Assembly (NCBI GenBank): GCA_030043315.1
Contig: JASHYA010000322.1
Span: forward strand, 1 to 56,602
DNA from: Acidimicrobiales bacterium
GTDB taxonomy: Bacteria > Actinomycetota > Acidimicrobiia > Acidimicrobiales > RAAP-2
Direction: 5' to 3'
DNA length: 56,602 bases
The notes beneath the pieces are model-generated. The model saw only the letters and a list, made by a program, of their open reading frames with translations. It did not search any database and was not told the DNA's origin. This document shows positions 1,951 through 41,746 of the stretch, in pieces (position 1 is the stretch's first letter; each line of letters starts with the position of its first letter). Both the position numbers and the translations under genes were made by a program.

Positions 1951-2013
1951 GGGCTCAGGGGTGCGCGCCGGGTCACGCTTCGAACGGTACGAATCGAGCG
2001 GCGTCTGCCCAGG

Positions 2014-2654: not shown

Positions 2655-3611
2655 ATGGCCAGAGCCGTCTGGACCGGGTCGCTCAGCTTCGGCCTGGTGA
2701 ACGTGCCCGTGGCGCTCTTCACCGCCACCGAGGAGAAGTCGATCCACTTCAACCAGTTCCAGGCGGGCACCTCCGACCGGGTCCGGAACAAGCGCGTGAA
2801 CGAACGCACCGGTGAGGAGGTCCCCTACCAGGACATCGCCAAGGGGTACGACCTGGGCGGCGGCGAGTTCGTGCTCCTCAGCCCCGACGAGATCGCCTCG
2901 GTCGCCCCCGGCCGATCGAAGACCATCGACGTCTCCGCCTTCGTGGACCTGGCCGAGATCGACCCGGTCTACTTCGACCGGACCTACTACCTCGCACCGC
3001 CCGCAAAGGGGGCCGGCTCGGGCGGGGAACGTGCCTACGCGCTGCTGCGGGAGGCGATGTTGCGCGCGAACAAGGTGGCGCTCGCCACCTTCGTCCTCCG
3101 CGAGAAGCAGTACCTGGTCGCCGTCCGCCCGCGTGCCGACGTCCTCGTCGTCGAGACCCTCCTCTACGCCGACGAGGTGCGGAACCCGGTCACGGAGATC
3201 GACTCGCTGCCGGTGGGGACGGACGGGTCGCCTCGCGAGCTCGAGATGGCGACGATGCTCATCGACTCGATGACGACCGAGTGGGACCCCGAGCAGTTCC
3301 ACGACACCTACCGTGAGAGGCTCGAGGAGCTCATCGAGCAGAAGCGGTCGGGCGCGACGCTGGCCGTCGAGCCCCAGGAGCCCGAAGGTGCACCCGTCGT
3401 CGACCTCCTCCAGGCGCTCGAGGCGAGCCTGCGGGCCACGCGCGGCCAGGCGCCGTCTTCGTCGGGTGCGTCCCGTTCGTCCAGTTCGTCCGGCCGCCCC
3501 GCGGCCGCGAAGAAGGCGGCGAAGCTGCCGGGTGACGGAAAGAAGGCGGCTCCGGCCAAGAAGCGCGCGCCGCAGAAGCGGGCCGCAACGGCTCGGCGAA
3601 AGGCTTCCTGA
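2655..3611 (+). CDS. ku: Ku DNA end-binding protein with a Lys/Ala-rich basic tail
   Basis: MARAVWTGSLSFGLVNVPVALFTAT... is the canonical bacterial Ku N-terminus. The ATG at 2655 is preceded by GAGGAAAGGGG. The C-terminal tail is PAAAKKAAK...KKRAPQKR. Confidence 0.92.
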   Translation: MARAVWTGSLSFGLVNVPVALFTATEEKSIHFNQFQAGTSDRVRNKRVNERTGEEVPYQDIAKGYDLGGGEFVLLSPDEIASVAPGRSKTIDVSAFVDLAEIDPVYFDRTYYLAPPAKGAGSGGERAYALLREAMLRANKVALATFVLREKQYLVAVRPRADVLVVETLLYADEVRNPVTEIDSLPVGTDGSPRELEMATMLIDSMTTEWDPEQFHDTYRERLEELIEQKRSGATLAVEPQEPEGAPVVDLLQALEASLRATRGQAPSSSGASRSSSSSGRPAAAKKAAKLPGDGKKAAPAKKRAPQKRAATARRKAS

Positions 3612-5809: not shown

Positions 5810-6780
5810 TGGAGAAGTGCCGCCTCCATCGAGTCCCCGACGAGGTTGATCGCCACCACGAGCGAGGCGATGGCGAGCGCGGGGAAGAGCGTCTGCCACC
5901 AGTACCCCGCGGCGAGGTACTGGTAATTGCTGGCAACTGTCGCCCCCCAGTCGGGGGTCGGGGGCTGAACCCCGAAGCCCAGGAACGAAAGCGTCGCGAT
6001 GGTGAAGATGGCGTAACCGAGGCGGACGGTGAACTCGACGATGATCGGCCCGAGCACGTTCGGCAGGACCTCGACGAACATGATGTGGAAAGCATTCTCG
6101 TTGCGCAGCCGTGCGGCCGCGATGTAGTCGAGCTCGCGCTCCTGCAGCACGGCGGTGCGGACGGTCCTCGCGATGATGAAAGCGAACGTGAAGCCGATGA
6201 CAATGACAAGCGTGAGGGTGTTCGCGCCAACCGCAACGATGAAGAGGAACGCGACGATCACCGTTGGGAGCGCAAGCAGGGCGTCCACCAACCTGCCGAC
6301 GAGCATGTCGAAGGCGCCTCGGAAGTAGCCCTGGGCGAGGCCGATCGCCGTGCCGACCGCGGTGCCGACGAGCGTGGCGAGGGGAGCGATCTCGAGGATG
6401 TCGCGGGCTCCGACGATCACCCGCGAGAAGACGTCGCGCCCGAGCGAGTCGGTGCCGAACCAGTGCGCCGCGGACGGTGCAGCGTTGACGTTCAGCAGGC
6501 TCTGCGAGAGGGGGTTGTAGGGGACGAACAACGTCCCGAAGATGGCGCAAACGATCCACCAGAGAAGGATGAGCGCGCCGACGATGAAGGCCTTCGAGTG
6601 AACGAGCTGCCGGAGCTGCTCAGCACGGATACGCCTCGGCGACAGGTCTTGGGCTCCGGAGGAGCTCACCACCACGAATGGGGCCCGATCGAGGACGTCG
6701 GTCATGGCGCCGGCTTCGACGGACGCGCTCTCCGCCTTGGCGCCGACCAGCGCAGCCGTGAGATCGCTGTCCGCTGTCAT
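5806..6780 (-). CDS. ABC transporter permease (DppC/OppC type)
   Basis: Multi-TM protein of the BPD-transport family. It carries a GTDSLGRDVFSRV motif. The ATG at 6780 overlaps the upstream permease stop (ATGA). Confidence 0.85.
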   Translation of the reverse strand: MTADSDLTAALVGAKAESASVEAGAMTDVLDRAPFVVVSSSGAQDLSPRRIRAEQLRQLVHSKAFIVGALILLWWIVCAIFGTLFVPYNPLSQSLLNVNAAPSAAHWFGTDSLGRDVFSRVIVGARDILEIAPLATLVGTAVGTAIGLAQGYFRGAFDMLVGRLVDALLALPTVIVAFLFIVAVGANTLTLVIVIGFTFAFIIARTVRTAVLQERELDYIAAARLRNENAFHIMFVEVLPNVLGPIIVEFTVRLGYAIFTIATLSFLGFGVQPPTPDWGATVASNYQYLAAGYWWQTLFPALAIASLVVAINLVGDSMEAALLQ

Positions 6781-7730
6781 TCCTCGCTGCCAAGACGAAT
6801 GCGTGGGTTGAGCACGGTGTACAGAATGTCGGCGAGCAGGGTGGCGAGCAGGTACACGATGCCGATGAAGAGGACTCCTGCCTCGAGCATGGGGAAGTCC
6901 TTGAAATCCGCTGCGGTGAGGATCAGCCTCCCGATGCCCGGATAGTTGAAGAGGTTCTCGATCACGACAAGTCCGCCTATGAGATAGCCGGTCTGCGTGG
7001 CGATCACGGTGATGGTCGGAAGCAGGGAGTTGCGTAGCACGTGGCGGGAGATCACGCGCCAACGGGGGAGCCCGTTCAAGGTTGCCGTGCGGACGTAGTC
7101 AGAGTCGAGGACTTCGATCGTGCCCGCCCGTGCCATGCGCGCGATGTACCCGAAGAGAATCAGGACGAGTGGCACGGCCGGCAGGATGAGGTAGCGCAAC
7201 TGCGTGAAGAACGGCGAGCCTGGCGGAGCCTGGGCCGTGACGGGTAGCACCTTGAGGGCGATGCCGAAGATGACGATGAGAACGATGCCAGAGACGAATG
7301 TCGGCACCGTCGTAAACGACAGGCCGCCCACGCTGATGATCTTGTCGATGGCACGGCCTCTGTTCAGCGCAGCGACAACGCCGCCGAGAATGCTGAGCGG
7401 GACGACGATGACGAAGGCGAAGAGCGCGAGCTTGGCCGAGCGTCCGAGCGCCGGGAAGAGAAACGAGCTCACCGGCGCGTGGTACTCCCAGGACGTCCCG
7501 AGGTTGCCGTGGATGATGCCCGACACCCAGCTCCAGTACTGGACGAGGAGCGGTCGGGTCACCCCGAGCTTGCGGTTGAGCGCCAGCACGGCCGACTCCG
7601 GGGCGTAGTGCCCGAGGATGGCGCGACCAGGGTTGCCCGGGAGCACCTGCCCAGCCAGGAAGATGATCATGCTGAGCAGCACGAGCGTCAAAACCGTGAG
7701 CCCAAGACGCTTCAGGAGGTGTGGCCACAT
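6777..7730 (-). CDS. ABC transporter permease (DppB/OppB type)
   Basis: MWPHLLKRLGLTVLTLVLLSMIIFL... is the canonical DppB N-terminus. The ATG at 7730 is preceded by GGGAGCAGGAG. Confidence 0.88.
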   Translation of the reverse strand: MWPHLLKRLGLTVLTLVLLSMIIFLAGQVLPGNPGRAILGHYAPESAVLALNRKLGVTRPLLVQYWSWVSGIIHGNLGTSWEYHAPVSSFLFPALGRSAKLALFAFVIVVPLSILGGVVAALNRGRAIDKIISVGGLSFTTVPTFVSGIVLIVIFGIALKVLPVTAQAPPGSPFFTQLRYLILPAVPLVLILFGYIARMARAGTIEVLDSDYVRTATLNGLPRWRVISRHVLRNSLLPTITVIATQTGYLIGGLVVIENLFNYPGIGRLILTAADFKDFPMLEAGVLFIGIVYLLATLLADILYTVLNPRIRLGSEE

Positions 7731-7944
7731 CTCCTGCTCCCTTGCTTTGGGACAGGTAATGAACCTGGCTTGTTGCGGGCCGCACCATAGCAAACGTGCG
7801 CGCTTTGCGGCTGGGCGGTCTGTCCTGCGGTCGTCCCGGCGATGCCGACGAGAGTGACGTCCGGGTCGAGGGCGAGCCCGAAGATCGCATGGACGGCGGC
7901 CACGCCGAGAGCGTAGGTAGGAGACGGGCGGACCGTGCCGACCG

Positions 7945-9183
7945 TCAACGTCCGATCGGCACGGTCCGCGAGATCTCCTCGCCCTCGCCCAACTCGAGGT
8001 GCAGCCGGTCACCGGCGTAGGGATGACTCGCGACCACCTCGTCGTCGAGCTCCACACCGAGACCGGGTGACTCGGGCGTGAGCAGGAAGCCGTCTTCGAC
8101 CACCAGTGGCTTCTTCAGGATCTCGGCGTGGAACCCGCCCATCCGCTCGATGCTCTCCTGGATGAGGAAGTTCGGCGTGCTCAGCCCAAGGTGGATGTTC
8201 GCTGCCGCCTCCACCGGCCCGGCGTAGAAGTGCGGGGCGATGTCGACGTAGTAGGCCTCGGCGGCGTGCGCCACCTTCTTCGCCTCGAGCAGCCCGCCGA
8301 CCCTACCGACCGCCATCTGGAGGATGGCCGCCGCCCGCCACTCGAGCACCCGGGCGAACTCGTACTTCGTGGCGAGCCGCTCGCCCGTCGCGATCGGGAT
8401 CGAGGTGGCGCGAGCGACGAGCGCCATCTGCTCGGGCATTTCGGGCGGCGTCGGCTCCTCGAGCCAGAGCGGGTCGTACTGCTCGATCGTCCTGGCGAAC
8501 CGGATGGCGCTCGACGGCGTCATCTGGCCGTGAGTGCCGACGAGCAGGTCCACCGAGGTCCCGACGGCCTCACGGATGCTCGCCACGTAGTCCGAGGCGG
8601 CCTTCAACGTCGAAGCCGTGAGCTGGCGGGGGTCGAGGGACGAGTAGGTGACAACCGGATCGAACTTGATGGCCGTGAAGCCCTCGCGGACGTAGTCGGC
8701 CGCCCGCTCGGCTCCGAGGACGGGGTCGGTGTAGACCGAATTGTCGGCGCCGGGCGCCGGGTGGATGTTGTCGGCGCCGGGCGCCGGGTAGATGTAGGTG
8801 TACGCCCGGAGCGCCTCTCGCACCCTGCCGCCGAGGAGCCGGTAGACCGGTTGGTCGAGCTCCTTTCCGATGACGTCCCAACAGGCGGTCTCGAGACCTG
8901 ACAGGATCGCCACGACCGAGGTATCCGGCCGCTGCGTGTAGCCGCGGGAGTAGACCGATCGCCACAGCCGTTCGACGTCGAAGGGATCGGCTCCGACGAG
9001 CGAACGGTCAGCGACATCGGCCACCAAGCGACCCACGGCCTGCGGGAGAAACGGAGGGGCGTAGACCTCCCCGATGCCGGTGACGCCGTGGTCCGTCGTG
9101 ACTCGCACGAAGATCCAGAAGTTGCCGCCATAGTGTGGCGGCGGCGTCCCCACGACGATGGTTTCGACGTCTGCGATGCGCAC
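7945..9183 (-). CDS. enolase-superfamily enzyme (mandelate racemase/muconate lactonizing family, acid-sugar dehydratase-like)
   Basis: MRIADVETIVVGTP...GIGEVY capping domain. Barrel motifs are IKFDP, LWLEEP and ATGERL. GTG start with an AGGAG SD. Contains a 27-bp in-frame tandem duplication. Confidence 0.85.
   Translation of the reverse strand: MRIADVETIVVGTPPPHYGGNFWIFVRVTTDHGVTGIGEVYAPPFLPQAVGRLVADVADRSLVGADPFDVERLWRSVYSRGYTQRPDTSVVAILSGLETACWDVIGKELDQPVYRLLGGRVREALRAYTYIYPAPGADNIHPAPGADNSVYTDPVLGAERAADYVREGFTAIKFDPVVTYSSLDPRQLTASTLKAASDYVASIREAVGTSVDLLVGTHGQMTPSSAIRFARTIEQYDPLWLEEPTPPEMPEQMALVARATSIPIATGERLATKYEFARVLEWRAAAILQMAVGRVGGLLEAKKVAHAAEAYYVDIAPHFYAGPVEAAANIHLGLSTPNFLIQESIERMGGFHAEILKKPLVVEDGFLLTPESPGLGVELDDEVVASHPYAGDRLHLELGEGEEISRTVPIGR
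8741..8794. repeat. 27-bp tandem duplication, 2 copies with 1 mismatch, inside the enolase-family CDS
   Basis: ttgtcggcgccgggcgccgggtGgatg followed by ttgtcggcgccgggcgccgggtAgatg. It encodes IYPAPGADN followed by IHPAPGADN. Confidence 0.95.
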
Positions 9184-10833: not shown

Positions 10834-10848
10834 GATTCATGGTGAATC
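10834..10848. promoter_or_regulatory. perfect inverted repeat GATTCA-tgg-TGAATC, candidate operator
   Basis: 6-bp arms with a 3-bp spacer. It lies immediately upstream of the SD (GGAGGAGGGAAG) and the ATG at 10872 of the binding-protein gene. Confidence 0.3.
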
Positions 10849-10871
10849 TGGCCATGGAGGAGGGAAGTGGC

Positions 10872-12602
10872 ATGGTACGTAGCGCAGACCAGCCCGGGCT
10901 CGACCACGAGCGACTCGATCCGCTTCGCCGCAACAGGGGACCCATTGCCGAGCATTACATCGACGAGCTCGTCGCGGGGCGCCTCTCGCGCCGTCAATTC
11001 CTCCGATACGGGTCAGCGGTCGGACTTTCGATCCCCCTTATGCACAAGATGCTCGGGGCGTGGCCCGGCTCGTCGTCGAGATCGGCCGAGACCTTGACCA
11101 GTCCCTTGCGCAGCGCCGCGGGCAAGGCGGGCGCGACCATTCGTGCGGGCATACAGGTGCCATCAGGCGCGATCGACCCGATCACGATCGATGACGAGGG
11201 CGCTCTCGAGGTCCTCGGAAACATCGGAGAGTTCCTCGTCTTCACCGATCAGCAGAACAACTACCACCCTTGGCTCGCCACGAGCTGGAGCGCGAACGCG
11301 GACGCCAGCGTCTGGACGTTCAAGATTCGCAAGGGCGTGAAGTTCAACGACGGCACCCCCATGACCGTCGACGATGTCATCTACAGCTTCAAGAGCCAGT
11401 GCACATCGAAGAGCTCCGCCAACGCCCTGTCGGTGTTCGGCGGAACGCTCCTGCCCGACGGCGTCGTAAAGGTGGACACAACAACGGTCGCCTTCCACCT
11501 TGTGCAGCCCGACGGCGGCTTCATCGACGCTGTCAGCGAAGACAACTACAACATGGTCATCGTCCCGAACAACTTCGACTTCTCGAAGTACCAGACAACG
11601 ATGCCGGGCACGGGACGGTTCAAGATGAAGAGCTACACGACGAGCGTGGGCGCCGTTCTCGTGCGCAACCCGTACTACTGGGGGACGCCGGCGTTGCCGT
11701 CGGAGGTCCACATGACCTTCTACCCGACCACAACGCCCATGGTCGCCGCCCTCGAGTCGGACAGCATCGACTGCCTGGACCAGTTCGCGGTGACGACAGC
11801 TCCGCAGCTGCTGGACGGCAGCTACACCGTGATCAGCATCAAGGCTGCCACCCACCGCGAGCTCTCCATGCGCACCGACATCTCGCACTTCAAGAGCAAG
11901 TACGTCCGCCAAGCCATCGCCTACACCCTTGACCGCCCCGCGATCGTGAGCTCGCTGTTCAAGGGTAAGGCCGAGGTCGGCAACGACAATCCTTTCGCTC
12001 CAGTGTTCAAGTCGACGGTGGGCCCGCCCGGCGTCCCGCAGCGCAAGCAGAACCTGAAGCTCGCCAAGGAGCTCCTCGCCAAGGCGGGCGTGAGCCGCGG
12101 TTTCAAGGCGACGCTCTACACCGAGACGGTCCAGGAGATGCCCCACTTCGCAGAGATCGTGAAGGCGTCGGCGGCGCAGATCGGCATCGACATCACCCTC
12201 GTCATCACGACATCGTCGAAGTACTTCGGGACAGGTGTCATCGGGAAGTCGAACTGGCTGGACGGTGAGATGAGCCTCGTGACATACGGCGCGCGAGCGG
12301 TCCCGAACGTCTACCTCGAGGCACCGCTGCAGACGTACAACCCGAGGACGGGTACGGGCGAATGGAACGCGGCGCGGTTCAACACATCGAAATACGACAT
12401 CCTCTCGAAGGAGTTCATCGCAGCCGTCGACCTGTCGAAACAGCGGAGCATCGCCAAGCAGATCGAGACCCTGCTGCTCGACGAGACGCCCATAATCTAC
12501 GCCTACTTCTACGACTACCTCTCCGCCACGCAGAAGGACGTGAAGGGCGTCTACCCGACTGCAGAGGGCCAGTTCTTCCTCTGGAACGCCTCGAAGACCT
12601 GA
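10872..12602 (+). CDS. ABC transporter substrate-binding protein, family 5 (peptide/opine/nickel type), TAT signal
   Basis: Twin-arginine signal SRRQFLRYGSAVGL and a family-5 SBP body. The third ATG of ORF 10839..12602 was chosen because GGAGGAGGGAAG lies 6-9 nt upstream. Confidence 0.85.
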   Translation: MVRSADQPGLDHERLDPLRRNRGPIAEHYIDELVAGRLSRRQFLRYGSAVGLSIPLMHKMLGAWPGSSSRSAETLTSPLRSAAGKAGATIRAGIQVPSGAIDPITIDDEGALEVLGNIGEFLVFTDQQNNYHPWLATSWSANADASVWTFKIRKGVKFNDGTPMTVDDVIYSFKSQCTSKSSANALSVFGGTLLPDGVVKVDTTTVAFHLVQPDGGFIDAVSEDNYNMVIVPNNFDFSKYQTTMPGTGRFKMKSYTTSVGAVLVRNPYYWGTPALPSEVHMTFYPTTTPMVAALESDSIDCLDQFAVTTAPQLLDGSYTVISIKAATHRELSMRTDISHFKSKYVRQAIAYTLDRPAIVSSLFKGKAEVGNDNPFAPVFKSTVGPPGVPQRKQNLKLAKELLAKAGVSRGFKATLYTETVQEMPHFAEIVKASAAQIGIDITLVITTSSKYFGTGVIGKSNWLDGEMSLVTYGARAVPNVYLEAPLQTYNPRTGTGEWNAARFNTSKYDILSKEFIAAVDLSKQRSIAKQIETLLLDETPIIYAYFYDYLSATQKDVKGVYPTAEGQFFLWNASKT

Positions 12603-12660: not shown

Positions 12661-14142
12661 TCAGGGTCGCTCCGTCGCCACCTGCCACGCCGGACCCGTC
12701 CCAGGGCCTTGCTCCACCGCGGCGGCGAAGGCCGCCGCCAGGCGCCCACACTCCTCCCCGAGAGGTCGCCGGGACTCGATGGGCTGGATGTGGGCGCGCA
12801 CGAAGGCGAGCACGTCACGCAGCTTGGGGCTCACATCTCGCCCGGTGACGTGGAGGGCCTGCGAGCAGGTTGCAGCGAGCACCGCAAGCACCTCGTCCAG
12901 GCGGGCGGCCACTTCCCGCTCGGACAAGAACGCGATCGGTGCGGTGATGGCGACGTCGTCCTGCTCCGAGGCGGCGACCTCGGCCGGGGAGAGCAACGTG
13001 GGCTGGGCGAGGCGGCGCATCTCCTCTACGGCTTGGTTCGGGACGTATTCGAGGTAGGTGGTCGAGTGGCCGGTCGTGTAGTCGGTCCCAGGGGGCAGCA
13101 AGCGATCGGGAAGCCCTGAGACCGCACCACGGTGCAGCTTGACGATGTGACGTTGGGCGACGGCGGCGAGGTCGACCCACGCCGCCGACACGGCATCGAC
13201 GGCAGGTGCGGCAGCCGCGTCGTGAAAACCACCGGTCGAGAGGACGTCGGCTTCAGCTTGGCCCGTGGGCAGCAGGAACGTCGGATTGCTGACGACCGAA
13301 CGAAGCCCGCACGTCGCCACCTCCTCCAGACCCCACACGGCTCGCCGTGCCTGACCCAGGAGCCGGGGCAGGATTCGGTAGGCGGCCGGGGCGGACCGCT
13401 GCCGCCGTTCGCCGCCGGTGTCCTCGAGCCAGGAGGCCAGGGCTTCCAAGGCGGCCGAGGCGAAGGGGTCCCGCCACAGCTCCCCGAGCCGGGCGTCGCA
13501 CGCGTCAAGCGGGGCCCGAAAGGCCTCTATGGAGAGGGCCAGGCAGCCCTCCACCAGATCCACACGCCGGCGGGCGAAGATGGCGGTCAACCCCGCCATC
13601 GCGTGGGATGCGGGCGACCCGTTGCCCAGACCGGCCGAGAAGCCCTCGCCGGGGAAGATCCCCTCAGGGCCGCCGGTACGAAGGATGAAACGGGGCATGA
13701 GCTCGCCGGCGGCCACCAGCCCGCGAGCCGGCAGGCGGGCGAGCGGGCCGTCGAGGGAACTGGCGATGGACAGAGCCCGAGCCGGATGGGCGGCGGTCGC
13801 GCCCGAGACCAGCATGGGAAGAGAGGCGAGGACGGTGGCCCGGGACACGTACTCGGGGAGCGTTCCGCCCCCGAAGGACAGCCCCAGGAACGGCCGGGGA
13901 CGGCGGCGCCGGGCCTGAGCTTCCTCCAGTCCGTACCGCCGGCCGGCGTCGGGTCCGGCTCCCGTGGTGACCATGTAGATCGCGGAGTGCTCGTGGCGCG
14001 CCACGTGTTCCTGAAAGGCCGCGTGCGCCGCGGCCATGACCTCGAGCGCGCGGGCCGAGAGCCGGACGCCCTCGCCGCCGAGGGCTACGCGCCGGAGACT
14101 GTCCAGGTTGACGTCGGCAGGCCGGTCGATGAGGACGGTCAC
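12661..14142 (-). CDS. aromatic amino acid lyase-family (HAL/PAL fold) protein lacking the Ala-Ser-Gly MIO triad
   Basis: Family blocks: IYMVTTGAG (Tyr loop), AYRILPRLLGQA, VVSNPTF...STGGFH, EQDDVAITAP. The MIO loop reads RGLVAAGELMPRF where HAL has GSVGASGDLAPL. The GTG at 14142 overlaps the upstream stop (GTGA). Confidence 0.8.
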   Translation of the reverse strand: MTVLIDRPADVNLDSLRRVALGGEGVRLSARALEVMAAAHAAFQEHVARHEHSAIYMVTTGAGPDAGRRYGLEEAQARRRRPRPFLGLSFGGGTLPEYVSRATVLASLPMLVSGATAAHPARALSIASSLDGPLARLPARGLVAAGELMPRFILRTGGPEGIFPGEGFSAGLGNGSPASHAMAGLTAIFARRRVDLVEGCLALSIEAFRAPLDACDARLGELWRDPFASAALEALASWLEDTGGERRQRSAPAAYRILPRLLGQARRAVWGLEEVATCGLRSVVSNPTFLLPTGQAEADVLSTGGFHDAAAAPAVDAVSAAWVDLAAVAQRHIVKLHRGAVSGLPDRLLPPGTDYTTGHSTTYLEYVPNQAVEEMRRLAQPTLLSPAEVAASEQDDVAITAPIAFLSEREVAARLDEVLAVLAATCSQALHVTGRDVSPKLRDVLAFVRAHIQPIESRRPLGEECGRLAAAFAAAVEQGPGTGPAWQVATERP

Positions 14143-15608
14143 GGAACGGTTCCCGCGGTGGGCCCGGTGAGGCCGGCACGTCCTGTCGACGCCGCGGGTG
14201 GGAGGGGGAGGGAGCCGGTGACCGCGATGTCCGAGAGAGCCGCCGCCAGCCGCCCCACCTGAGCGCCCCGGTTCGCGGCTCGTGCGGGAGGGACGTAGGT
14301 ACGAACGAACGCGAGCAGGGGTCCCAGCCCGACCGGCGTGGGACGGTCGGTGAGGTCCAGGGCGTGGCTGGCGACCGCAGCCAGGACGGCCAGAGCCCCG
14401 TCGAGCTGAGCCGCGGCCGTCCACAGCCGCTCGGCGGCGACGAACGTCGGCAGGGCGACGTCTTCTTCACCTCCGTAGACCCCTCCCTCGGACGGGGGAA
14501 GGAACGTGCGGGCGGCGGCGTGGCGGGCCCGCTCGCCCAGGCCGACGGGAACGAACCCGAGGAGTCCCGTCGAAGTTCGACCGCCGGGTCCGGCCAGGCG
14601 GTCGGGCAACAGCGACACCGCCCCCCGATGGAGCTTGGTCGTGTGCCGGTCGGCCAGGGTGCAGAGGTCGGCCCACGTGGCCGCCAATGCGGCCATCGCA
14701 GGGTAGGCGGTCGCCGCGAACGAGCCGCCCGTGCTCAGGAGCGTCCCGTGCCCGCGGCCGTCGGTGGGCGGGAGGAAGACCTGATCCAGGGTCACGGCGC
14801 CGAGTGCGGACCGGGCAACGTCGTCGATCTGCGCCGCCGCCCGTCGGGCCTGTCCCAGGACCGGCGGAAGGACCCGATAGCTCACGGGGGCCTGGTAGGG
14901 ACGCCGGTCGGGGCCGGCGCCGGTCAGCCAGCGGTTGAGCCCGCCGAGGGCCTCGGCGACGAAGGGGTCGCCCCAGAGCCTCCCCAAAGCTGGGTCGTAG
15001 GCGGCGAGAGGGGCGGCCATCGCCTCGACGGAGAGCGCGAAGATGCCTTCGGCCAGAGCCAGGCGTCGGTGGGCCTGGAGGGCGGCGTCGGCGGCCAGTG
15101 CCGCCGAGCCGGGCGAACCGTCCAGCAGGGCCACGGCCTCGGCCTCCTGCAGATCGACCTCCGGCAAGCCTCGCAGCAGGTGGGCCAGGACCAACACCTC
15201 GCCCGCTGACGTCGTCCCCGCAACCGGGACCTCCGGCATGGGGCCGGCCAGCATCGAGGCAAGAGCCACGGCCACTTCGGGCCGACATGCGGCGTGCCCT
15301 TCGAGGAGGTCGGCGAGGCGGGCGAACACGATGCCGCGTACGACCCGCTCGGGAAGCCGAGTCTCCCCGAAGCCGTCGTCGGGCGGCCAAGCGGCCCGCC
15401 ACCCGGCGTCCTCGGCCGCCGGCGGAAGGGTGGCCAGCGGGAGATGAGCAACGGCGCTGTGTTCCAGAAGAAATGTGGCGAAGGAGCGGTGGGCGGCGGC
15501 CATGGCCCGACGTGCGCCGTGCGCCACGACCACCGTCTCCTTGTCGAAAGCCACTCGGCGGTAGTGCTCGAGGGTGATGTCGCCGCGATGGCGGACGGTG
15601 ACGGTCAG
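14139..15608 (-). CDS. degenerate aromatic amino acid lyase-family paralogue (no MIO triad, no Tyr loop)
   Basis: Family blocks: SYRVLPPVLGQA, STGGSF, EEDVALPTF. The MIO loop reads AGTTSAGEVLVLAH. The Tyr-loop region reads VAHLPLATL. The only start compatible with the N-terminal homology is CTG at 15608, overlapping the upstream TGA; the next in-frame GTG is about 17 codons downstream. Confidence 0.7.
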   Translation of the reverse strand: MTVTVRHRGDITLEHYRRVAFDKETVVVAHGARRAMAAAHRSFATFLLEHSAVAHLPLATLPPAAEDAGWRAAWPPDDGFGETRLPERVVRGIVFARLADLLEGHAACRPEVAVALASMLAGPMPEVPVAGTTSAGEVLVLAHLLRGLPEVDLQEAEAVALLDGSPGSAALAADAALQAHRRLALAEGIFALSVEAMAAPLAAYDPALGRLWGDPFVAEALGGLNRWLTGAGPDRRPYQAPVSYRVLPPVLGQARRAAAQIDDVARSALGAVTLDQVFLPPTDGRGHGTLLSTGGSFAATAYPAMAALAATWADLCTLADRHTTKLHRGAVSLLPDRLAGPGGRTSTGLLGFVPVGLGERARHAAARTFLPPSEGGVYGGEEDVALPTFVAAERLWTAAAQLDGALAVLAAVASHALDLTDRPTPVGLGPLLAFVRTYVPPARAANRGAQVGRLAAALSDIAVTGSLPLPPAASTGRAGLTGPTAGTVP

Positions 15609-16576
15609 GTTTGGCCCTGGTAGTCGACGACCGGCAGGCCGGCTTCCCGCCAAGCCACGAAACCGCCGTCGAGGTCGGTGGCGCGGGATAGCCCCAGGAA
15701 TTGGAGCTGCCGGGCCACCAGGCTCGAGGCGTAGCCCTCCATGCAGAACACGATGACGTGACGGTCGTAGGCGGCGATCTCGGAGATGCGGGAGGCGCTC
15801 CGGGGATCGAGGCGCCACTCGATCACGTTGCGAGGGATCGCCACCGCGCCAGGGATCTCGCCGGCCGCCTGGCGCTGCTCGACGGGGCGGATATCGACGA
15901 GCACCGCCCCCCCAGCCAAGGCGGTGGCGGCTTCGTGCGGCGAGAGCCGGACCAGGTGGCTCCGAGCCCTGGCCAGCAGCTCGTCGATGCTGTACGAGGC
16001 GGGTTGGCCGGGGGGGGTCGGCTCGGGGGAGTCGGTGGCGGCCGTCTCGACGGCCCCGAGGTCTCCGTCGCTCCACTGCTGATAGAAGGTCATGCTGGCC
16101 AGGGGTGGGGAGTAGGCGTGCAGGCTGACGGCGGGGCCTGGCCCCTCGTTGCCGACCACGTGGACGTAGGCGGCCCCGAAGCTGGCCCCTTCACCCGTGC
16201 CGAGCACCCTGCGGGAGAGCCGCAGCGGGCGGCGGGCGCTGTACCGCTCGACCAGCGATCCCTCCACGACCGTGAACGATCCGGAGGAGCCGCCGTGATC
16301 GTGGAGCCTCGTCTCTTGGGAGACGGCCCAGCCCTGCAGCCAAACGTCGACGTTCGACGCCAGGTGGAGCCGCTTGTACCAGCGGTGCGCAGCGTCGATC
16401 TGCACCACCGGTCGCCAGAGCTGCTCCGCGTGGGCGACGGCGGCCGTGAGGAGGGCCAGAGAGCGTGGAGGGATCCGGGACGAACCGAGTCGCAGGGAGT
16501 CGACGAGCGCGTCGATAGAACGATCGATTCCGCCCGAGCGAGGGTCGGCAACGGTCACCGACATCGAAACGAGCAC
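15605..16576 (-). CDS. cysteine dioxygenase type I (cupin) fused to a rhodanese domain
   Basis: CDO motifs: RLHDHGGSSGSFTVVEGSL and SLHAYSPPL. The C-terminal rhodanese domain reads LVDIRP...VIVFCMEGYAS, with the active-site Cys in CMEGY. The start is GTG at 16576 or ATG at 16564; AAGGAGGGAGG lies upstream. Confidence 0.8.
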   Translation of the reverse strand: MLVSMSVTVADPRSGGIDRSIDALVDSLRLGSSRIPPRSLALLTAAVAHAEQLWRPVVQIDAAHRWYKRLHLASNVDVWLQGWAVSQETRLHDHGGSSGSFTVVEGSLVERYSARRPLRLSRRVLGTGEGASFGAAYVHVVGNEGPGPAVSLHAYSPPLASMTFYQQWSDGDLGAVETAATDSPEPTPPGQPASYSIDELLARARSHLVRLSPHEAATALAGGAVLVDIRPVEQRQAAGEIPGAVAIPRNVIEWRLDPRSASRISEIAAYDRHVIVFCMEGYASSLVARQLQFLGLSRATDLDGGFVAWREAGLPVVDYQGQT

Positions 16577-16651: not shown

Positions 16652-17191
16652 TTACTGGCGTCGCAGGCGCCCGTAGTAGGGGTGGGTGACCTCGTCTCTG
16701 TCGTCGATGTGGCGCTGTACGGCTTCGGGCGGCCGTCCCTCGACGGCCTCGGCGATCGCCTGCCCGGCAGCATGTCGGGCTGCTTCCAAGACGGCAGGCT
16801 CGCTCTCGGCCGCGGGGTCCAGGTACACGGAGACCAGGACGGTCGTCTCCTGGTCGGCTTCGAGGTGTCCGACAGCCACCGCGTCGAGCACGGCCCGGGC
16901 TACCCCGACCTGAACTGCGCCGGCGAGCAAGGTCTCCTGCCGTTCGTCCGTGGCGGCGACCTTGTTGACCAGGATCGTGGGTGGGTAGAGGGTCTCGTAC
17001 GAGGGCTGGTCCCGGCCCAGGCAGGCAAGGATGGGCGTGTAGCCGGGCGACGGGGCCGTGAAGGCGGTGATCATGGCGGCGGCCGTGGGGGTCCCCCGGC
17101 GGGCCAGGATCACGTTCAAGTGGACGCCGTTCGGCGCGGTGCCACCCCATCCTTGGGCGATGCGTCCGTCGAGGTCCCGGCCTGCTGCCAT
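16652..17191 (-). CDS. formaldehyde-activating enzyme (Fae) family protein
   Basis: 179 aa. Matches from my memory of Fae: GVHLNVILARRGTP ~ VAHIDLIIGPRGSP, NKVAATDERQ ~ NKVTINDARQ, VARAVLDAVAVG ~ VAMAVQDAVAEG, and a C-terminal THPYY ~ THPF. ATG with a GGAGG SD. Confidence 0.55.
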   Translation of the reverse strand: MAAGRDLDGRIAQGWGGTAPNGVHLNVILARRGTPTAAAMITAFTAPSPGYTPILACLGRDQPSYETLYPPTILVNKVAATDERQETLLAGAVQVGVARAVLDAVAVGHLEADQETTVLVSVYLDPAAESEPAVLEAARHAAGQAIAEAVEGRPPEAVQRHIDDRDEVTHPYYGRLRRQ

Positions 17192-19740: not shown

Positions 19741-21255
19741 TTAACCGGCGGGGTCCACGCCACTGGGGCCGGCGTCTGCAACGTCCCCCCGGCGAACCAC
19801 ATCCACGAGCGGCTCCAGGTCGGACGGAAGCGCCTCCCCCCGCCCGGCGAAAGGCACGATCCCCCGGACCAGCTCATAGGCGCGACCGGTGCCGGCACCG
19901 AGGCGGGAGGGCCGGCGGAGATCGACCGCCTGGGCCGCCACGGTCAACTCCACGGCCACCGTGCGCGCCGCCAGGTCCACCATGTCTGCGAGGCGGCGGG
20001 CCGACAGGGGTGCCATCGTCGTTCGATCCTCGATCCCGTCCGCCTTGCTGGTGCTCACCACCTCGAAAGACACGGGGTAGGCGAGGCTTCGGGCTTCGGC
20101 TGCGAGCGCCTGGGCGGTGAGGGCCAGCTCGGCCAGCGCATCCTCGCCGGTGTCCGCTTCCGCCGCGAGACCGGCGGGCAGGCCCGAGAACGGGGTCTGC
20201 AGCAGCTTCACCGTGCGCTCGGCGGCGGAGGTCACGACGGGCGCCAGGGCGATGCGGGCGAAGTCGAGGGCGGCGGCGACGGGAGCTGCGTCGAAATTGC
20301 CGACCGAGACGATCTGCCGGTCGGCGAGGACGACCGCGGGGTTGCCCTGAGCCGAGTTGAGCTCGGTCTCGACCGTCGCCCGCACGTAGGTGAGCGCGTC
20401 CCTGGCCGCGCCATGGATCTGCGGCACGCAGCGGAACGTGAGAGGATCCTGGAGGTTGCGCGCCGTGCCCGGATCGAAGATGTAGCTCCCTTGGAGCATC
20501 GCCCGGAGGCGGCCGACGGTGGTCCTTATCCCCGGGTACGGCCGTAGCTCTCCCACCGCCGGGTGCAATGGTGAGGGGTTGGCGGCGAACGCCTCGAGGT
20601 CCAGGGCCGCGGCGACATCGCTCGCGTCCAACAGGCGCTCGGCCGCGGCGACTGCGAGTGCGGCCCAGCCCGTGGAGAAGGCGTTGGCGTTGATGAGCCC
20701 CGGACCCTCCCCCTCCCGGAGGGAGAACCCGGACTGGCGAAGGAGCCCCTCGGCCAGGTCCGCCATGGGCCCGAGATCGGAGATCCCTACGGAGCTCAGG
20801 GTCCGCACCCGGGGCACGGTGCCTTGGTTGAGGGCGGCGAGGACCATGTCGGCGAGCTCGGGACGCACACCCGTCGCTCCCCGGGCATAGCCGTTCACGA
20901 GGCAGGTCATGGTCGCACGGACGACCTCGGGTGGTGCCGGGGGGCCCTGCGAGATCAGGTGACCGGACACGAGGAAGCGGGTGAACCGAAGACGTGTGGC
21001 GGGGTCGAGGTCGACCCTCTTGCGCTCGGCCACGGCGGTCGTGAGACCGTAGACGCGTTCGTTCGCACGCAGCGCCTCCTCGACCACCTGACGCGCCGCC
21101 GCGATCCGGTCCCGGGCCGCCGGCGCCAGCCCGACCAGCACGCCCCGCTCGGCGACGGCGACGAGCGAATCGAGGTTCAGCGAAGAGCCGTCGAGCAGCA
21201 CCGTTGGAGTCACAACGGGCGGAGCTTCGCCCGGGCGAGCGGCAGACGGTGTCAA
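19741..21255 (-). CDS. aromatic amino acid lyase-family (HAL-like) protein lacking the Ala-Ser-Gly MIO triad
   Basis: Strong HAL blocks: RVYGLTTA, LQDPLTFRCVPQIHGAA, SAQGNPAV...SVGNFDAAPVA, GIEDRTTMAP. The MIO loop reads SSVGISDLGPMADLA, one residue short with no ASG. The start is uncertain: TTG at 21255 or GTG at 21213 (the latter gives MTPTVLLDG, like its paralogues). Confidence 0.8.
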   Translation of the reverse strand: MTPSAARPGEAPPVVTPTVLLDGSSLNLDSLVAVAERGVLVGLAPAARDRIAAARQVVEEALRANERVYGLTTAVAERKRVDLDPATRLRFTRFLVSGHLISQGPPAPPEVVRATMTCLVNGYARGATGVRPELADMVLAALNQGTVPRVRTLSSVGISDLGPMADLAEGLLRQSGFSLREGEGPGLINANAFSTGWAALAVAAAERLLDASDVAAALDLEAFAANPSPLHPAVGELRPYPGIRTTVGRLRAMLQGSYIFDPGTARNLQDPLTFRCVPQIHGAARDALTYVRATVETELNSAQGNPAVVLADRQIVSVGNFDAAPVAAALDFARIALAPVVTSAAERTVKLLQTPFSGLPAGLAAEADTGEDALAELALTAQALAAEARSLAYPVSFEVVSTSKADGIEDRTTMAPLSARRLADMVDLAARTVAVELTVAAQAVDLRRPSRLGAGTGRAYELVRGIVPFAGRGEALPSDLEPLVDVVRRGDVADAGPSGVDPAG

Positions 21256-21400: not shown

Positions 21401-22018
21401 TCAGATCTCCTGTTCGGGGTAGCCGGTCAGGCCGATTCCGAACTCTTGGCCCGCGTCGGCGAGTGCGTCGAACAGGAACTGCCCAGAAGAACGGTCGGAC
21501 ACGATGAGGTAGGACGGGTCTCCATCGACGTCATCGCGCACGACGGTCGAGACGACGGCTGCGACACGGCTCCGGAAGCTGGAGCCGTTCGGCGTGGCGC
21601 GGTCGGACAGGTCGATGGCGCACACCTTCTCGAGGGCCCTTCTGGCGCTCTCTCCGCTGAGACGGAGCACCACGCTCCCATGCGTCACGTCGATGACCGT
21701 CACGAGCGACGTGCAGCCGCGGAGCCGGGAGGCGATCATCTCCGAGACGGCGTCGGACCTCCCGGTGGGCGCGAGGACGAGCCAGCTGTCCGGCCCGGTC
21801 CCGACGATCAGGCTGCCGTCCTCGCGACGGGCACGGAGGTGCTCGCACAACAACGGGGCGACCTCGCCCGGCGCCCCCCGCACGAGCACCTTCGAGAGGG
21901 CGGTCATGTCGGCGAGGCGGAGCGCCGCCTTCGAGTGCGCGCTGCTCACCTCCCATGCGCCCCGCGTTCCCGTCGGTCCGGCGGGTGCGATCGGCGAGCG
22001 TGCGACGGGCTCAGCCAC
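21401..22018 (-). CDS. soxG: sarcosine oxidase-family gamma subunit (SoxG / N-methylglutamate dehydrogenase MgdD type)
   Basis: SoxG-like sequence: ARSPIAP..., LRLADMTALSKVLVRG, VIDVTHGSVVLRLSG. The GTG at 22018 overlaps the soxA end by 8 nt; the alternative start at 22051 would overlap by 41 nt. Confidence 0.75.
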   Translation of the reverse strand: MAEPVARSPIAPAGPTGTRGAWEVSSAHSKAALRLADMTALSKVLVRGAPGEVAPLLCEHLRARREDGSLIVGTGPDSWLVLAPTGRSDAVSEMIASRLRGCTSLVTVIDVTHGSVVLRLSGESARRALEKVCAIDLSDRATPNGSSFRSRVAAVVSTVVRDDVDGDPSYLIVSDRSSGQFLFDALADAGQEFGIGLTGYPEQEI

Positions 22019-25138: not shown

Positions 25139-25166
25139 CGCCCCTTCTCCCTCGCCTCGCCCGGCA

Positions 25167-41743: not shown

Positions 41744-41746
41744 GGG

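Follow-up and report, generated by a model that had tools for sequence, protein, structure and literature searches.

Described relatives with the HAL/PAL fold

The MIO-dependent enzymes of the HAL/PAL fold, i.e. P. putida HutH, PAL, TAL, and the aminomutases, feature composite active sites to which three chains contribute. Every site of AvPAL draws on three different monomers: Tyr314 comes from an adjacent chain, on a helix that it shares with Gln311 and Arg317 (together HAL positions 277, 280, and 283), and Gln452, at the HAL Glu414 position, comes from yet another chain (bioRxiv 10.1101/2021.06.06.447205).

Members of this fold without MIO have also been characterised, and all of them remove trimethylamine. 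An earlier reading of the present DNA from its letters alone (the sequence-only reading) named ergothionase (ergothioneine trimethylamine-lyase; Treponema denticola, PDB 6S7J; Burkholderia ErtA) as the only characterised branch of this kind, which proved too narrow. Two more activities are reported, histidine betaine lyase and N-pi-methyl histidine betaine lyase, represented by Shewanella woodyi Swoo_3913 (a histidine betaine trimethylammonia-lyase) and S. oneidensis SO_3299, respectively. The Shewanella enzymes need a trimethylammonium leaving group and are periplasmic and coupled to flavocytochrome reductases for anaerobic respiration. Ergothionase is described in the literature as a homomer.

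Plant PAL isoforms, such as tobacco PAL1-4, reportedly co-assemble as heterotetramers. These isoforms are near-identical, catalytically complete, and active alone, and their assembly is optional and involves no complementary loss. The deoxyhypusine synthase of Trypanosoma brucei is said to be a heterotetramer of paralogues with complementary live and dead sites, and argininosuccinate lyase, with its active site at the subunit interface, is known for intragenic complementation. To our knowledge, heteromers of paralogues with complementary halves are unknown for the HAL/PAL family. No description of any heteromeric member was found in the literature searched, in agreement with the sequence-only reading.

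A coupled gene pair without MIO

The window is the whole stretch of DNA analysed, 56,602 nucleotides from an Acidimicrobiales bacterium. It carries two neighbouring lyase genes, A and B, in an apparent operon whose first gene is Fae-like (formaldehyde-activating-enzyme-like), followed by CDO/rhodanese, B, and A:

16652..17191, minus strand: formaldehyde-activating-enzyme-like gene (PF08714, 94.5 bits; PDB 1y5y, E 2.4e-15)
15605..16576, minus strand: cysteine-dioxygenase-like and rhodanese fusion gene, CDO/rhodanese (PF05995 and PF00581; best PDB matches 8qfl-8qfr, E 1e-15)
14139..15608, minus strand: gene B, about 489 aa, start uncertain, proposed degenerate partner subunit (PF00221, identity to A, AlphaFold, orthologue starts)
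14139..14142, minus strand: GTGA overlap, the GTG start of A lying over the TGA stop of B (14139..14141; direct sequence reading)
12661..14142, minus strand: gene A, 493 aa, GTG start, proposed catalytic-type subunit of a MIO-less HAL-fold lyase (PF00221, AlphaFold, Foldseek, motif table)

The claimed 4-nt overlap of the two genes is real and is an arrangement for translational coupling of B and A. At 15605-15607, the stop codon of CDO/rhodanese lies directly against the start of B or overlaps it, which places that gene in the same operon. The end coordinate 15608, given earlier for B, does not hold as a canonical start, as the codon there is CTG; the nearest canonical in-frame start upstream in the start-codon list is TTG 15653. 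Starts at GTG 15554 or at GTG 15527, the latter used in the database gene call (P0119), were rejected as too short, since they would cut N-terminal residues shared with homologues. B homologues begin with MTVTV, aligned at the position of 15608, and residues 1-50 of B are modelled by AlphaFold at pLDDT 97. Because the shorter starts would drop these residues, the true start therefore lies at 15608 or further upstream.

Both proteins belong to the aromatic amino acid ammonia-lyase family, as had been proposed: A reaches 137.8 bits and B 104 bits in a profile search against PF00221, well in excess of its gathering score of 27.3. Over 475 aa, their mutual identity is 41% (E 9e-67). AlphaFold models are confident (pLDDT 91.8 for A and 89.7 for B) and superpose in Foldseek on HAL, TAL, and ergothionase at TM 0.77-0.84. 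The motif correspondences to HAL listed by the sequence-only reading were reproduced by HMMER alignments to P. putida HAL and PAL, in which AAYRILPRLLGQA pairs with YSLRCQPQVMGA, STGGFHD with SGGNFHA, and SEQDDVAITAP with NQEDHVSM-AP. Against the NCBIfam HAL models, A and B score 72-95 bits where the cut-offs are 524-539. With ergothionase they have the PF00221 fold in common (TM 0.78-0.80) but only 14-17% identity in structural alignment. No phmmer match to ergothionase was found for A or B at E<=1e-3, and Foldseek indicated no special closeness to it.

The MIO triad was likewise claimed to be missing from both genes, and it is: [A/T/C/S]-S-G has zero occurrences over the full length of A, B, and a third paralogue, C. 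MIO is absent from A and B because neither has Ala-Ser-Gly:

13693..13722, minus strand: A residues 141-150, GLVAAGELMP, replacing the MIO loop with Ala-Gly-Glu and no Ser (alignments; no xSG in A)
15180..15221, minus strand: B residues 130-143, AGTTSAGEVLVLAH, MIO-loop equivalent with Ser-Ala-Gly-Glu and no Ala-Ser-Gly (HMMER alignment to PAL)
19741..21255, minus strand: gene C, third HAL-fold lyase, MIO-less, with loop SSVGISDLGP (PF00221, 358 bits)

In the HMMER alignment, TTSA-GE of B stands opposite TISASGD of PAL, so that B simply has the Ser of Ala-Ser-Gly deleted. The loop at the MIO position reads x-(A/P)-G-E in 237 of 238 family proteins. Ergothionase and the Shewanella enzymes are also MIO-less, and the ergothionase loop is, as in A and B, one residue shorter than that of HAL. 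Gene C is far closer to ergothionase than A and B are (6s7j, E 2.7e-52) and has Leu at the ergothionase Lys384 position; its orthologues (63-71% identity) adjoin pairs at three other loci (L062, L067, L069).

Complementary loss of active-site elements

Tyr53, Asn195, Gln277, Arg283, and Asn313 of HAL, PAL, TAL, and the aminomutases have equivalents in the A/B clade, whereas Tyr280 is replaced by Val or Ala and His83 is unconserved. Ergothionase resembles A in its catalytic Tyr loop, and resembles the pair in its Gln/Arg carboxylate-binding helix and in an aliphatic residue for HAL Tyr280. The elements concerned are located as follows:

13954..13980, minus strand: A residues 55-63, IYMVTTGAG, catalytic Tyr loop, HAL Tyr53 equivalent (HMMER alignment to HAL AYGINTGFG)
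15366..15464, minus strand: B residues 49-81, what is left of the Tyr-loop region after a 7-residue deletion, without Tyr (alignments)
13348..13398, minus strand: A residues 249-265, RSAPAAYRILPRLLGQA, helix donated to an adjacent chain (alignments, motif table)
14847..14897, minus strand: B residues 238-254, YQAPVSYRVLPPVLGQA, donated helix intact with Gln239 and Arg245 (conservation, motif table)

In HAL numbering, A retains the Tyr loop, whose Tyr is invariant in a 79-sequence alignment (A4), together with the A-G-E loop, Asn195, Asn313, and a Gln as the Glu414 equivalent. The upstream copy, B, does lack the Tyr loop, as had been noticed earlier: its 7-residue deletion leaves no Tyr opposite IYMVTTGAG of A, and the stretch is modelled with low confidence (pLDDT 54-69). 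Asn195, Asn313, and the Glu414 equivalent are missing from B as well (motif table). The window's A has also degenerated in part: in its donated helix (family consensus YQAPVSYR) the HAL Gln277 equivalent is Ser, and the HAL Arg283 equivalent (Arg256) is kept.

Tyr, Gln, and Arg are all retained by 203 of the 238 family proteins. Another 17 lack Tyr but have Gln and Arg (some of these sequences being N-terminally truncated), 18 have Tyr but lack Gln or Arg, and none of the 238 lacks both kinds. In 9/9 pairs with a degenerate member, the Tyr-bearing partner keeps Y53, N195, N313, and the E414 equivalent and has lost Q277 and/or R283, whereas the degenerate partner has lost N195 and mostly also Y53, N313, and the E414 equivalent and keeps Q277 and R283; in the remaining pairs (12/12) both partners are fully intact. 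By these motifs the degeneration is complementary, B-types losing own-chain residues and A-types the donated Gln and/or Arg. The assignment of residues to own or donor chain is an inference carried over from PAL and HAL, not an observation in the A/B family. Most pairs elsewhere have two intact partners; the heteromer would be older, and the dead subunit a state derived from it.

The pairing is conserved across genomes. A-type genes, defined here by at least 47% identity to A, nearly always have a B-type neighbour, in Actinomycetota as well as in Proteobacteria (the window, L002/L003, L005, L009, L010, L004/L006, L007, L008, L012, and L014/L056); for eight more A/B pairs adjacency was only inferred, from contigs of identical length, and not directly observed. 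B precedes A in Actinomycetota, and in Proteobacteria A comes first. A 4-nt overlap is usual and recurs in L002, L004, L056, L067, L068, and L013. A point against strict pairing is that the complementary genes of L044 are about 12 kb apart. In the phylogeny, the subtree of B mirrors that of A. The L069/L044 pair arose separately, by a duplication within the B/S clade, and repeats the complementary pattern; tree and motifs together indicate that the complementary split evolved repeatedly.

It may be objected that A and B are independent and merely co-transcribed, with A a homotetrameric lyase and B a non-catalytic paralogue in another role, such as that of a chaperone, regulator, or binding protein. 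Every characterised family member has been described as a homotetramer, A in the window keeps its own Arg256, and most pairs have two complete sites, so that each partner could be self-sufficient; L057 even has two A-type genes with no B within 10 kb. This explanation is nonetheless rather improbable, since it cannot account for the loss of Gln277/Arg283 in A-types only beside a Tyr-loop-less neighbour (9/9 versus 0/12). It also leaves unexplained why the donated helix ranks with the best-conserved segments (0.91) of the nine degenerate B proteins, in which conservation is lowest in the Tyr-loop region (0.12-0.28). Moreover, the Tyr-bearing partner of L067, L069, and Planotetraspora is entirely without the carboxylate-binding Arg and should be crippled as a homotetramer, yet the Planotetraspora gene has a dN/dS of 0.125.

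Another view would take B for a decaying pseudogene left by a tandem duplication, its pattern being coincidental. Several catalytic motifs are missing from B, its annotated start is non-canonical, and the B fragment of Planotetraspora is truncated and relaxed in constraint, with a dN/dS of 0.55 that, at very low divergence, is indistinguishable from neutral drift. However, degenerate B is under purifying selection (dN/dS 0.20 over 484 codons, dS 0.37; 0.23 for A), which together with the following makes decay very improbable. B reads through about 489 codons without a stop, its base composition is of coding type over the full length (GC1/2/3 = 0.80/0.58/0.84), the AlphaFold model is confident, B orthologues (50-58% identity) in many metagenomes share the losses and the retained motifs, and the 4-nt coupling to A is conserved.

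As the losses in A and B concern different, complementary parts of the site, the two are most likely functional only as a mixed complex. That they act as an obligate heteromer is considered probable, the physical complex being inferred from sequence comparison. The earlier proposal, a guess based on a single locus, that a translationally coupled pair of one active and one degenerate copy makes up a heteromeric MIO-less lyase thus gains support from conserved pairing, complementary loss, purifying selection, and mirrored subtrees, without direct evidence of a complex. The two proteins would be subunits of an obligate hetero-oligomeric lyase of the HAL/PAL fold, most likely an A2B2 tetramer by inference, with no MIO electrophile and with each active site composed from three chains, as is usual for the fold. 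In the live site, A would supply the own-chain elements (Tyr56 loop, Ala-Gly-Glu loop, Asn174, and Asn286), B would donate the helix with Gln239 and Arg245 for binding of the substrate carboxylate, and a second A chain would provide the Gln394 loop at the HAL Glu414 position. The reciprocal, B-centred site would be dead, with the Tyr loop, Asn195, Asn313, and Glu414 equivalent lost from B and the donated-helix Gln lost from A, giving two live and two dead sites per tetramer. The three-way loss pattern fits one D2 arrangement, in which contacts across one axis are A-A' and B-B' and those across the others are A-B. An A homotetramer in the window might retain some activity, A having lost only the Gln.

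As in the plant PAL heterotetramers, different gene products of the HAL fold would occupy one tetramer. The likeness to T. brucei deoxyhypusine synthase and argininosuccinate lyase lies in an interface site of which each copy loses a different half, so that only the mixed oligomer is complete, although their folds, reactions, and organisms are unrelated or only distantly related. Ergothionase differs in being a described homomer, whereas A and B appear obligately paired.

Genomic context and candidate reaction

The window contains further genes that bear on the reaction:

3692..8057, minus strand: Opp-type ABC genes (ABC components)
10839..12602, plus strand: family-5 solute-binding protein, convergent with A (PF00496, 235 bits)
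21401..36567: N-methylglutamate-pathway-like genes and a sarcosine-oxidase-like complex (Pfam/NCBIfam matches)
39624..41743: ETF alpha/beta (Pfam/NCBIfam matches)
41747..43873: Fe-S/CCG oxidoreductase (Pfam/NCBIfam matches)
44403..46829, minus strand: trimethylamine dehydrogenase (TMADH) orthologue (889 bits, E 1.9e-266, full length to TMADH 1djn/2tmd)

TMAO-demethylase-like GCV_T proteins are also present. The binding protein and the Opp-type genes are likely an uptake system. Orthologues of the binding protein (52-77% identity) adjoin family lyases in L002, L005, L013, L016, L021, L044, L051, L055, and L068, and CDO/rhodanese orthologues (47-53% identity) adjoin solo family lyases in L016, L051, and L055. 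Solo relatives lie in uninformative housekeeping contexts. The L002 pair stands at the end of a series of co-directional genes with best NCBIfam matches to ErtD, thiourocanate hydratase, thiohydantoin desulfurase, and ErtE; on these matches, the series upstream of the pair looks like an ergothioneine-utilisation operon.

A trimethylamine-releasing betaine lyase fits this context but is not demonstrated. By analogy with the characterised MIO-less relatives and from the context, Tyr would abstract the beta-proton and a good leaving group would be eliminated. Most likely, trimethylamine would be released from an N-alpha-trimethylated histidine derivative, either ergothioneine or an oxidised, methylated, or desulfurised relative. 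The substrate would be imported through the adjacent family-5 ABC system, and the trimethylamine would then be consumed via the trimethylamine dehydrogenase, ETF, and N-methylglutamate route of the window. Trimethylamine elimination from an ergothioneine-family betaine is offered tentatively, the substrate and leaving group being inferred and the activity untested.

Alternatively, the heteromer with its split site may be true and the imported substrate, leaving group, or reaction type may be another. A peptide-like or opine-like molecule would suit the family-5 binding protein, and the transporter is of the peptide/opine/nickel type, not the betaine type. The imidazole/thiolate-recognising residues of HAL and ergothionase are not conserved: the alignment gives no evident His83 equivalent in the A/B family and a Gln at the Glu414 position (the Glu of the ergothionase I-E-D motif), and no basic residue stands at the position of Lys384, which binds the thiolate in ergothionase (rough alignment only). 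Because these equivalents are missing, an imidazole/thione substrate is not indicated by the pocket. Swoo_3913 and SO_3299 are without the ergothionase Lys, as are A, B, and C, but keep the His and Glu for imidazole binding that the A/B clade lacks; A and B also differ from them in having no signal peptide context and in being paired. Furthermore, genes for M24/creatinase-like and S15 peptidases are found close to the pairs of L004, L056, and L067, the A/B clade is equidistant from all characterised enzymes, and the 10 kb around the pairs of other genomes revealed no TMADH or methylamine genes, which in the window are located 7-30 kb from the pair. Such a different reaction is still regarded as unlikely. 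A free amino group leaves poorly in the absence of MIO, and every characterised MIO-less member needs trimethylammonium; additionally, the L002 operon ties the pair to ergothioneine-utilisation enzymes, and in the window a thiol-dioxygenase-like gene is coupled to the pair and a true TMADH orthologue is present.

Taken as a whole, the reading of an obligate A2B2 MIO-less lyase with two live composite sites, and more tentatively with trimethylamine elimination, is favoured with some reserve, complex and activity being biochemically untested. A mixed complex with a split site would represent an arrangement for which no description was found in the HAL-type enzyme family, and in it B would persist as a structural, carboxylate-binding partner.

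Gene layout, family membership and the MIO loop

Two overlapping paralogues, A and B, are encoded on the reverse strand of the window, which has a G+C content of about 69%.

12661..14142, (-) strand: gene A, GTG start, 493 aa
14139..14141, (-) strand: TGA stop codon of gene B; the GTGA is common to the A start and the B stop

The sequence-only reading had described an overlap of 4 nt (GTGA) between the two genes, and reading of the sequence confirmed it. The base composition of B is of the normal coding type, and a promoter and terminator scan of window positions 12400-17500 found none. The codon at 15608 is CTG, and the canonical in-frame start candidates for B are TTG at 15653 upstream and GTG at 15554 and 15527 downstream. 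Orthologues of B begin with MTVTV at the position of 15608, and the AlphaFold pLDDT is 97 over the first 50 residues of B. The public gene call (database protein P0119, window 14139..15527) uses the GTG at 15527 and yields 462 aa; the 27 residues left out by this call show conservation among homologues and have a modelled pLDDT of 97. Owing to the MTVTV starts of the orthologues and this pLDDT, P0119 is considered truncated, with the true start at or upstream of 15608. The real start of B seems to be either CTG 15608 or TTG 15653.

Both ORFs had been placed in the aromatic amino acid lyase family, and this is borne out by the PF00221 profile, which scores 137.8 bits for A and 104 bits for B at a gathering cut-off of 27.3. 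The two proteins share 41% identity (E 9e-67), and their motif correspondences to HAL were reproduced by HMMER alignments to HAL and PAL chains of known structure. AlphaFold models of A and B reached a pLDDT of 91.8 and 89.7 from alignments of 79 and 72 sequences, respectively, and the weak spot of the B model is exactly the former Tyr-loop region. In Foldseek, the models of A and B match solved TAL, HAL, ergothionase, and tyrosine aminomutase structures with TM 0.77-0.84 and 14-26% identity, the PDB entries including 2o6y, 1eb4, 1gk2, and 6s7j, with no special closeness to any one solved member, including ergothionase over HAL or TAL. The best NCBIfam HAL/PAL/TAM equivalogs give 95 bits for A and 75 bits for B at cut-offs of 501-800. 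Beyond such weak HAL, PAL, and TAM matches, no NCBIfam model names A, B or C, the last being a third MIO-less paralogue in the window. NCBIfam seems to be without an ergothionase model, since C matches none either.

Judged by their sequences, A and B fail the defining test of MIO enzymes. It had been claimed that neither protein contains the MIO-forming Ala-Ser-Gly, and indeed [A/T/C/S]-Ser-Gly is absent throughout both, the loop reading AAGE in A and SAGE in B. The comparison of the loop in B (TTSA-GE) with that in PAL (TISASGD) indicates that the Ser has been deleted in B. The loop takes the form x-(A/P)-G-E in all but one of 238 family members. The catalytic Tyr loop, likewise as proposed, is kept in A as IYMVTTGAG (Tyr56) and absent from B, which has a 7-residue deletion and no Tyr. 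The combination of a MIO-less loop with a catalytic Tyr loop is therefore true of A and not of B. In HAL numbering, the equivalents of residues 277, 283, and 313 are Ser, Arg, and Asn in A and Gln, Arg, and Asp in B, and the full Gln/Arg/Asn carboxylate-binding set is obtained only on combining the two chains. Residues 277 and 283 lie together with Tyr280 on a helix that is given to the neighbouring chain in the HAL/PAL fold (the donated helix); the Tyr280 equivalent is Ala in A and Val in B. The Glu414 position is occupied by Gln in A and by Glu in B.

The MIO-less members of PF00221 characterised so far are ergothionase, histidine betaine lyase, and N-pi-methyl histidine betaine lyase, all of which eliminate trimethylamine. 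According to the authors of the Shewanella lyase work, the trimethylammonium group is strictly needed. A and B have the MIO-less design in common with these trimethylammonia-lyases but fall into a separate deep clade and are without the substrate-recognition residues of those enzymes. In the neighbour-joining tree, this clade consists of A, B, and their solo relatives (S-type proteins), and no characterised member of it was found. Neither A nor B gave a phmmer match to ergothionase 6s7j at E<=1e-3, and the structural-alignment identity to it is 14-17%.

Conserved pairing and complementary degeneration

When 5.8 billion proteins were searched, A retrieved about 130 relatives (37-65% identity) from Acidimicrobiales, other Actinomycetota, and Alpha- and Gammaproteobacteria, carrying automatic names only, and B retrieved >730 relatives. 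The DNA around the relatives was retrieved and each locus (L numbers, from other genomes) was screened with the family HMM; a metagenome contig scan yielded 5 loci, mostly short. A-type genes (>=47% identity) directly adjoin B-type genes, in the order B then A in Actinomycetota (the window, L002/L003, L005, L009, L010) and A then B in Proteobacteria (L004/L006, L007, L008, L012, L014/L056). Together with L067 and L068, the pair is present in 12 retrieved loci from two phyla. For 8 further A/B pairs, the pairing is only inferred, on the grounds that both members come from contigs of identical length. The 4-nt overlap recurs in the called genes of pairs at L002, L004, L056, L067, L068, and the Planotetraspora locus L013. 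As an exception to pairing, the two A-type genes of L057 (10001..15896), separated by 3 kb, are without a B-type gene within 10 kb.

The more distant relatives (37-44% identity) are solo S-type genes with every motif intact, carried by Mesorhizobium, Inquilinus, Dongia, Kiloniellaceae, and others. Their neighbours in Inquilinus, an actinobacterial MAG, and Parvibaculaceae are secA, uvrA, and similar genes, which are uninformative. A different arrangement was noticed at L058 (10001..17527), where four family lyase genes stand in a row, one A-type and three B/S-type.

Among the 238 family proteins, Tyr, Gln, and Arg are all kept in 203. Tyr is absent with Gln and Arg kept in 17, some of which are N-terminally truncated sequences, and Tyr is kept with Gln or Arg absent in 18; none of the 238 is missing both Tyr and Gln/Arg. 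A degenerate member occurs in 9 pairs, which are listed in the table. In 9/9 of them, Tyr53, Asn195, Asn313, and the Glu414-equivalent Gln are all present in one partner, which has lost Gln277 and/or Arg283, and the other keeps Gln277 and Arg283 and has lost Asn195, mostly along with Tyr53, Asn313, and the Glu414-equivalent. In the remaining pairs, both partners are fully intact (12/12).

Table. Residues at positions 277 and 283 in the Tyr-bearing partner of the nine pairs with a degenerate member
Window: S, R
P0002 (database protein, paired with P0132): L, R
L002 and L010: A, R
L067: Q, Q
L068: E, R
L069: A, L
L044: D, R
Planotetraspora: whole motif replaced

Across the nine degenerate B proteins, conservation is lowest in the Tyr-loop region (0.12-0.28) and reaches 0.91, one of the highest values, in the donated helix VSYRVLPxVLGQ. 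In the most extreme case, that of two Planotetraspora species (L013, 9803..12231, and L011), B is a fragment of ~265 residues which still carries YQAPVSFRVVPRVL. The GTGA-coupled A-like gene downstream has its own copy of the motif replaced by SALELFASVFYL in both species.

Purifying selection on degenerate B is as strong as that on A. Between L002 and L010, dN/dS is 0.20 for degenerate B (484 codons, dS 0.37) and 0.23 for A; L002 and L005 are identical in the pair region. Between the two Planotetraspora species, the B fragment has a dN/dS of 0.55 at a dS of 0.05, which is inseparable from neutrality, and the A-like partner has a dN/dS of 0.125.

In a neighbour-joining tree without bootstrap, A-type proteins are monophyletic, the B partners lie inside a large B/S clade, and the branching of the A subtree is mirrored by that of the B subtree. 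The L069/L044 pair represents a separate duplication within the B/S clade with the same division, one gene with Tyr kept and Gln/Arg lost versus one with Tyr lost and Gln/Arg kept. The two genes are adjacent in L069 (8001..11002), with the Tyr-bearing gene first, and ~12 kb apart in L044 (6..1556 and 13294..14700).

Genomic context and the putative reaction

The surroundings of the pair in the window include the following features.

16652..17191, (-) strand: Fae-like gene (PF08714 94.5 bits, below the NCBIfam Fae cut-off), heading the apparent operon
15605..16576, (-) strand: cysteine-dioxygenase-like cupin/rhodanese fusion, whose stop touches the B start region
19741..21255, (-) strand: gene C, 504 aa, no Ala-Ser-Gly, loop SSVGISDLGP, 5 kb from the pair
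21401..46829: methylated-amine catabolic island with trimethylamine dehydrogenase, ETF alpha/beta, Fe-S/CCG oxidoreductase, and a sarcosine-oxidase-like set

The operon order appears to be Fae-like gene, dioxygenase/rhodanese, B, and A. The role of a Fae-like gene beside a thiol dioxygenase and lyases is unexplained. The best solved relatives of the dioxygenase domain are 8qfl-8qfr (E 1e-15), well ahead of the classical bacterial cysteine dioxygenases (4e-8). The depositor's name for these entries is 'cysteine dioxygenase'; we take them to be ergothioneine dioxygenase, an enzyme whose existence is confirmed, although its link to 8qfl-8qfr is not. The position of the dioxygenase/rhodanese gene next to B suggests a sulfur-containing substrate or product. 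On the other side, a family-5 binding protein gene is convergent with A, and Opp-type ABC genes lie beyond it.

C matches ergothionase 6s7j with E 2.7e-52. It has Leu at the thiolate-binding Lys384 position (ergothionase numbering), where hercynine lyase likewise has a residue other than Lys, namely Asn, and on this account C may be a hercynine-type lyase. The trimethylamine dehydrogenase gene encodes a full-length orthologue, with 889 bits to 1djn versus 512 for histamine dehydrogenase. Additionally, the island contains a glutamine-synthetase-like gene and glutamate-synthase-like GATase/GXGXG/Glu_synthase genes (N-methylglutamate-pathway-like), three GCV_T proteins with the best match to the C-terminal half of TMAO demethylase, and a BetI-type repressor. 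The sarcosine-oxidase-like set comprises four subunits in one count and alpha/beta/gamma in another. Taken together, these methylamine-type genes identify the region as a methylated-amine catabolic island.

Other genes of the window were also inspected. An MR/MLE gene (7945..9183) was considered as a betaine epimerase and rejected, its best NCBIfam matches being acid-sugar dehydratases. The left edge (574..3611) carries LigD and Ku of non-homologous end joining, and the right edge (51379..56493) carries an agmatine-deiminase-like gene, urease gamma/beta and alpha, and a second family-5 binding protein; both edges are unrelated.

Further context comes from other genomes. L002 (1375..11521) contains a co-directional run with best NCBIfam matches to ErtD, thiourocanate hydratase, thiohydantoin desulfurase, and ErtE, all scoring slightly below the strict cut-offs. 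Next comes a 565-aa ergothionase-like MIO-less lyase, whose residue at the Lys384 position is Arg (manual alignment), and then B and A. In nine loci, family lyases are accompanied by orthologues (52-77% identity) of the binding protein and ABC genes found in the window. Dioxygenase/rhodanese orthologues (47-53% identity) adjoin solo S-type lyases at L016, L051, and L055, and C orthologues (63-71% identity) adjoin A/B-type pairs at L062, L067, and L069. Methylamine genes near pairs in other genomes were not found.

Trimethylamine elimination is favoured by the characterised MIO-less members, the context in the window, and the Ert-like run in L002. Against this reaction on an ergothioneine-family betaine, the pocket residues for imidazole or thiolate recognition in HAL and ergothionase are not conserved: there is no conserved His at the aligned His83 position in the A/B family, Gln replaces Glu414, and the Lys384 position is Tyr or Phe in A/B (manual alignment, approximate) rather than a basic residue. 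Moreover, the transporter is of the peptide/opine type, and the lack of methylamine genes near pairs in other genomes also counts against it. Elimination of trimethylamine from an ergothioneine-family betaine is thus a tentative assignment, held with slightly less than even confidence, in which both substrate and leaving group are inferred from context. No enzymology of S-methyl-ergothioneine catabolism was found in the literature searched.

A putative split active site and its implications

In AvPAL, each active site is formed by three different monomers: Tyr314, on the helix of Gln311 and Arg317, comes from the adjacent chain, and Gln452, at the HAL Glu414 position, is treated as belonging to yet another chain (bioRxiv 10.1101/2021.06.06.447205). 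On such a plan, the live site would be centred on A, with B supplying the Gln/Arg helix and a second A the Gln394 loop. In the reciprocal site, centred on B, the helix and the loop would be supplied by A and by a second B, respectively. The elements that have decayed are the own-chain residues of B (from the set of the Tyr53 loop, Asn195, and Asn313, which in HAL and PAL sit on the MIO-bearing chain), the helix Gln/Arg of A, and the loop Gln of B. These three sets match, one for one, what the B-centred site would be built from and thus fit one D2 tetramer arrangement. This split-site arrangement is an inference from the sequences and the known fold architecture, without a structure. Degenerate B has most likely been retained because of its donation of the carboxylate-binding helix.

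The central proposal of the sequence-only reading, that the translationally coupled active/degenerate pair is a heteromeric MIO-less lyase, is supported by the conserved pairing, the complementary loss, and the purifying selection on B, the complex itself being inferred. We consider it rather likely that A and B are an obligate heteromer, with the physical complex and the joint activity still matters of inference. Given that both partners are intact in the majority of pairs, the heteromer is probably older than the degeneration, and the dead subunit seen in the window is derived. There are also weak points. A of the window has lost only the Gln, the Planotetraspora B fragment shows a dN/dS of 0.55, the L044 genes are ~12 kb apart, and L057 has no B. 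Most likely, the pair is a two-gene, split-active-site, MIO-less lyase from a widespread and mis-annotated clade, of which the complex, stoichiometry, substrate, and leaving group have not been shown experimentally.

Members of the HAL/PAL family are homotetrameric in the literature found. The literature searched contained no heteromeric member; on heteromeric or MIO-less members, it yielded only two Shewanella preprints and engineered PAL papers, and a paper in a subscription journal is not excluded. Plant PAL isoforms can form mixed tetramers, in which the subunits are near-identical and self-sufficient, unlike the diverged A and B. The closest analogies in logic are the trypanosome deoxyhypusine synthase heterotetramer and intragenic complementation in argininosuccinate lyase. 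A and B could be the first natural obligate heteromer of the HAL/PAL fold, from a clade which evolved two-gene enzymes at least twice, with one paralogue providing the catalytic loop and the other only the donated helix, on a B of ~265 residues in Planotetraspora. The clade would then catalyse an unidentified step in the breakdown of ergothioneine-family betaines, feeding trimethylamine to methylamine metabolism. This full reading is not quite an even bet.

The HAL/PAL enzymes are textbook homotetramers with a self-made MIO cofactor and are used in medicine (pegvaliase) and biocatalysis. The labels 'histidine ammonia-lyase' and 'aromatic amino acid lyase' carried by these proteins in hundreds of genomes and metagenomes are very probably wrong. 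Furthermore, expression of A alone, as is the usual practice, may yield an inactive or crippled enzyme. Divergent ergothionase homologues are so far unaccounted for, according to a review (PMC13405746). Release of trimethylamine from ergothioneine-type betaines by the pair, if true, would mean an unrecognised source of trimethylamine that is missed by ergothionase homology searches. A natural active site split over two genes, one catalytic and one pseudo-catalytic paralogue, would, if true, be a new quaternary design for the HAL/PAL fold and a clear example of composite active sites letting duplicated genes become mutually dependent.
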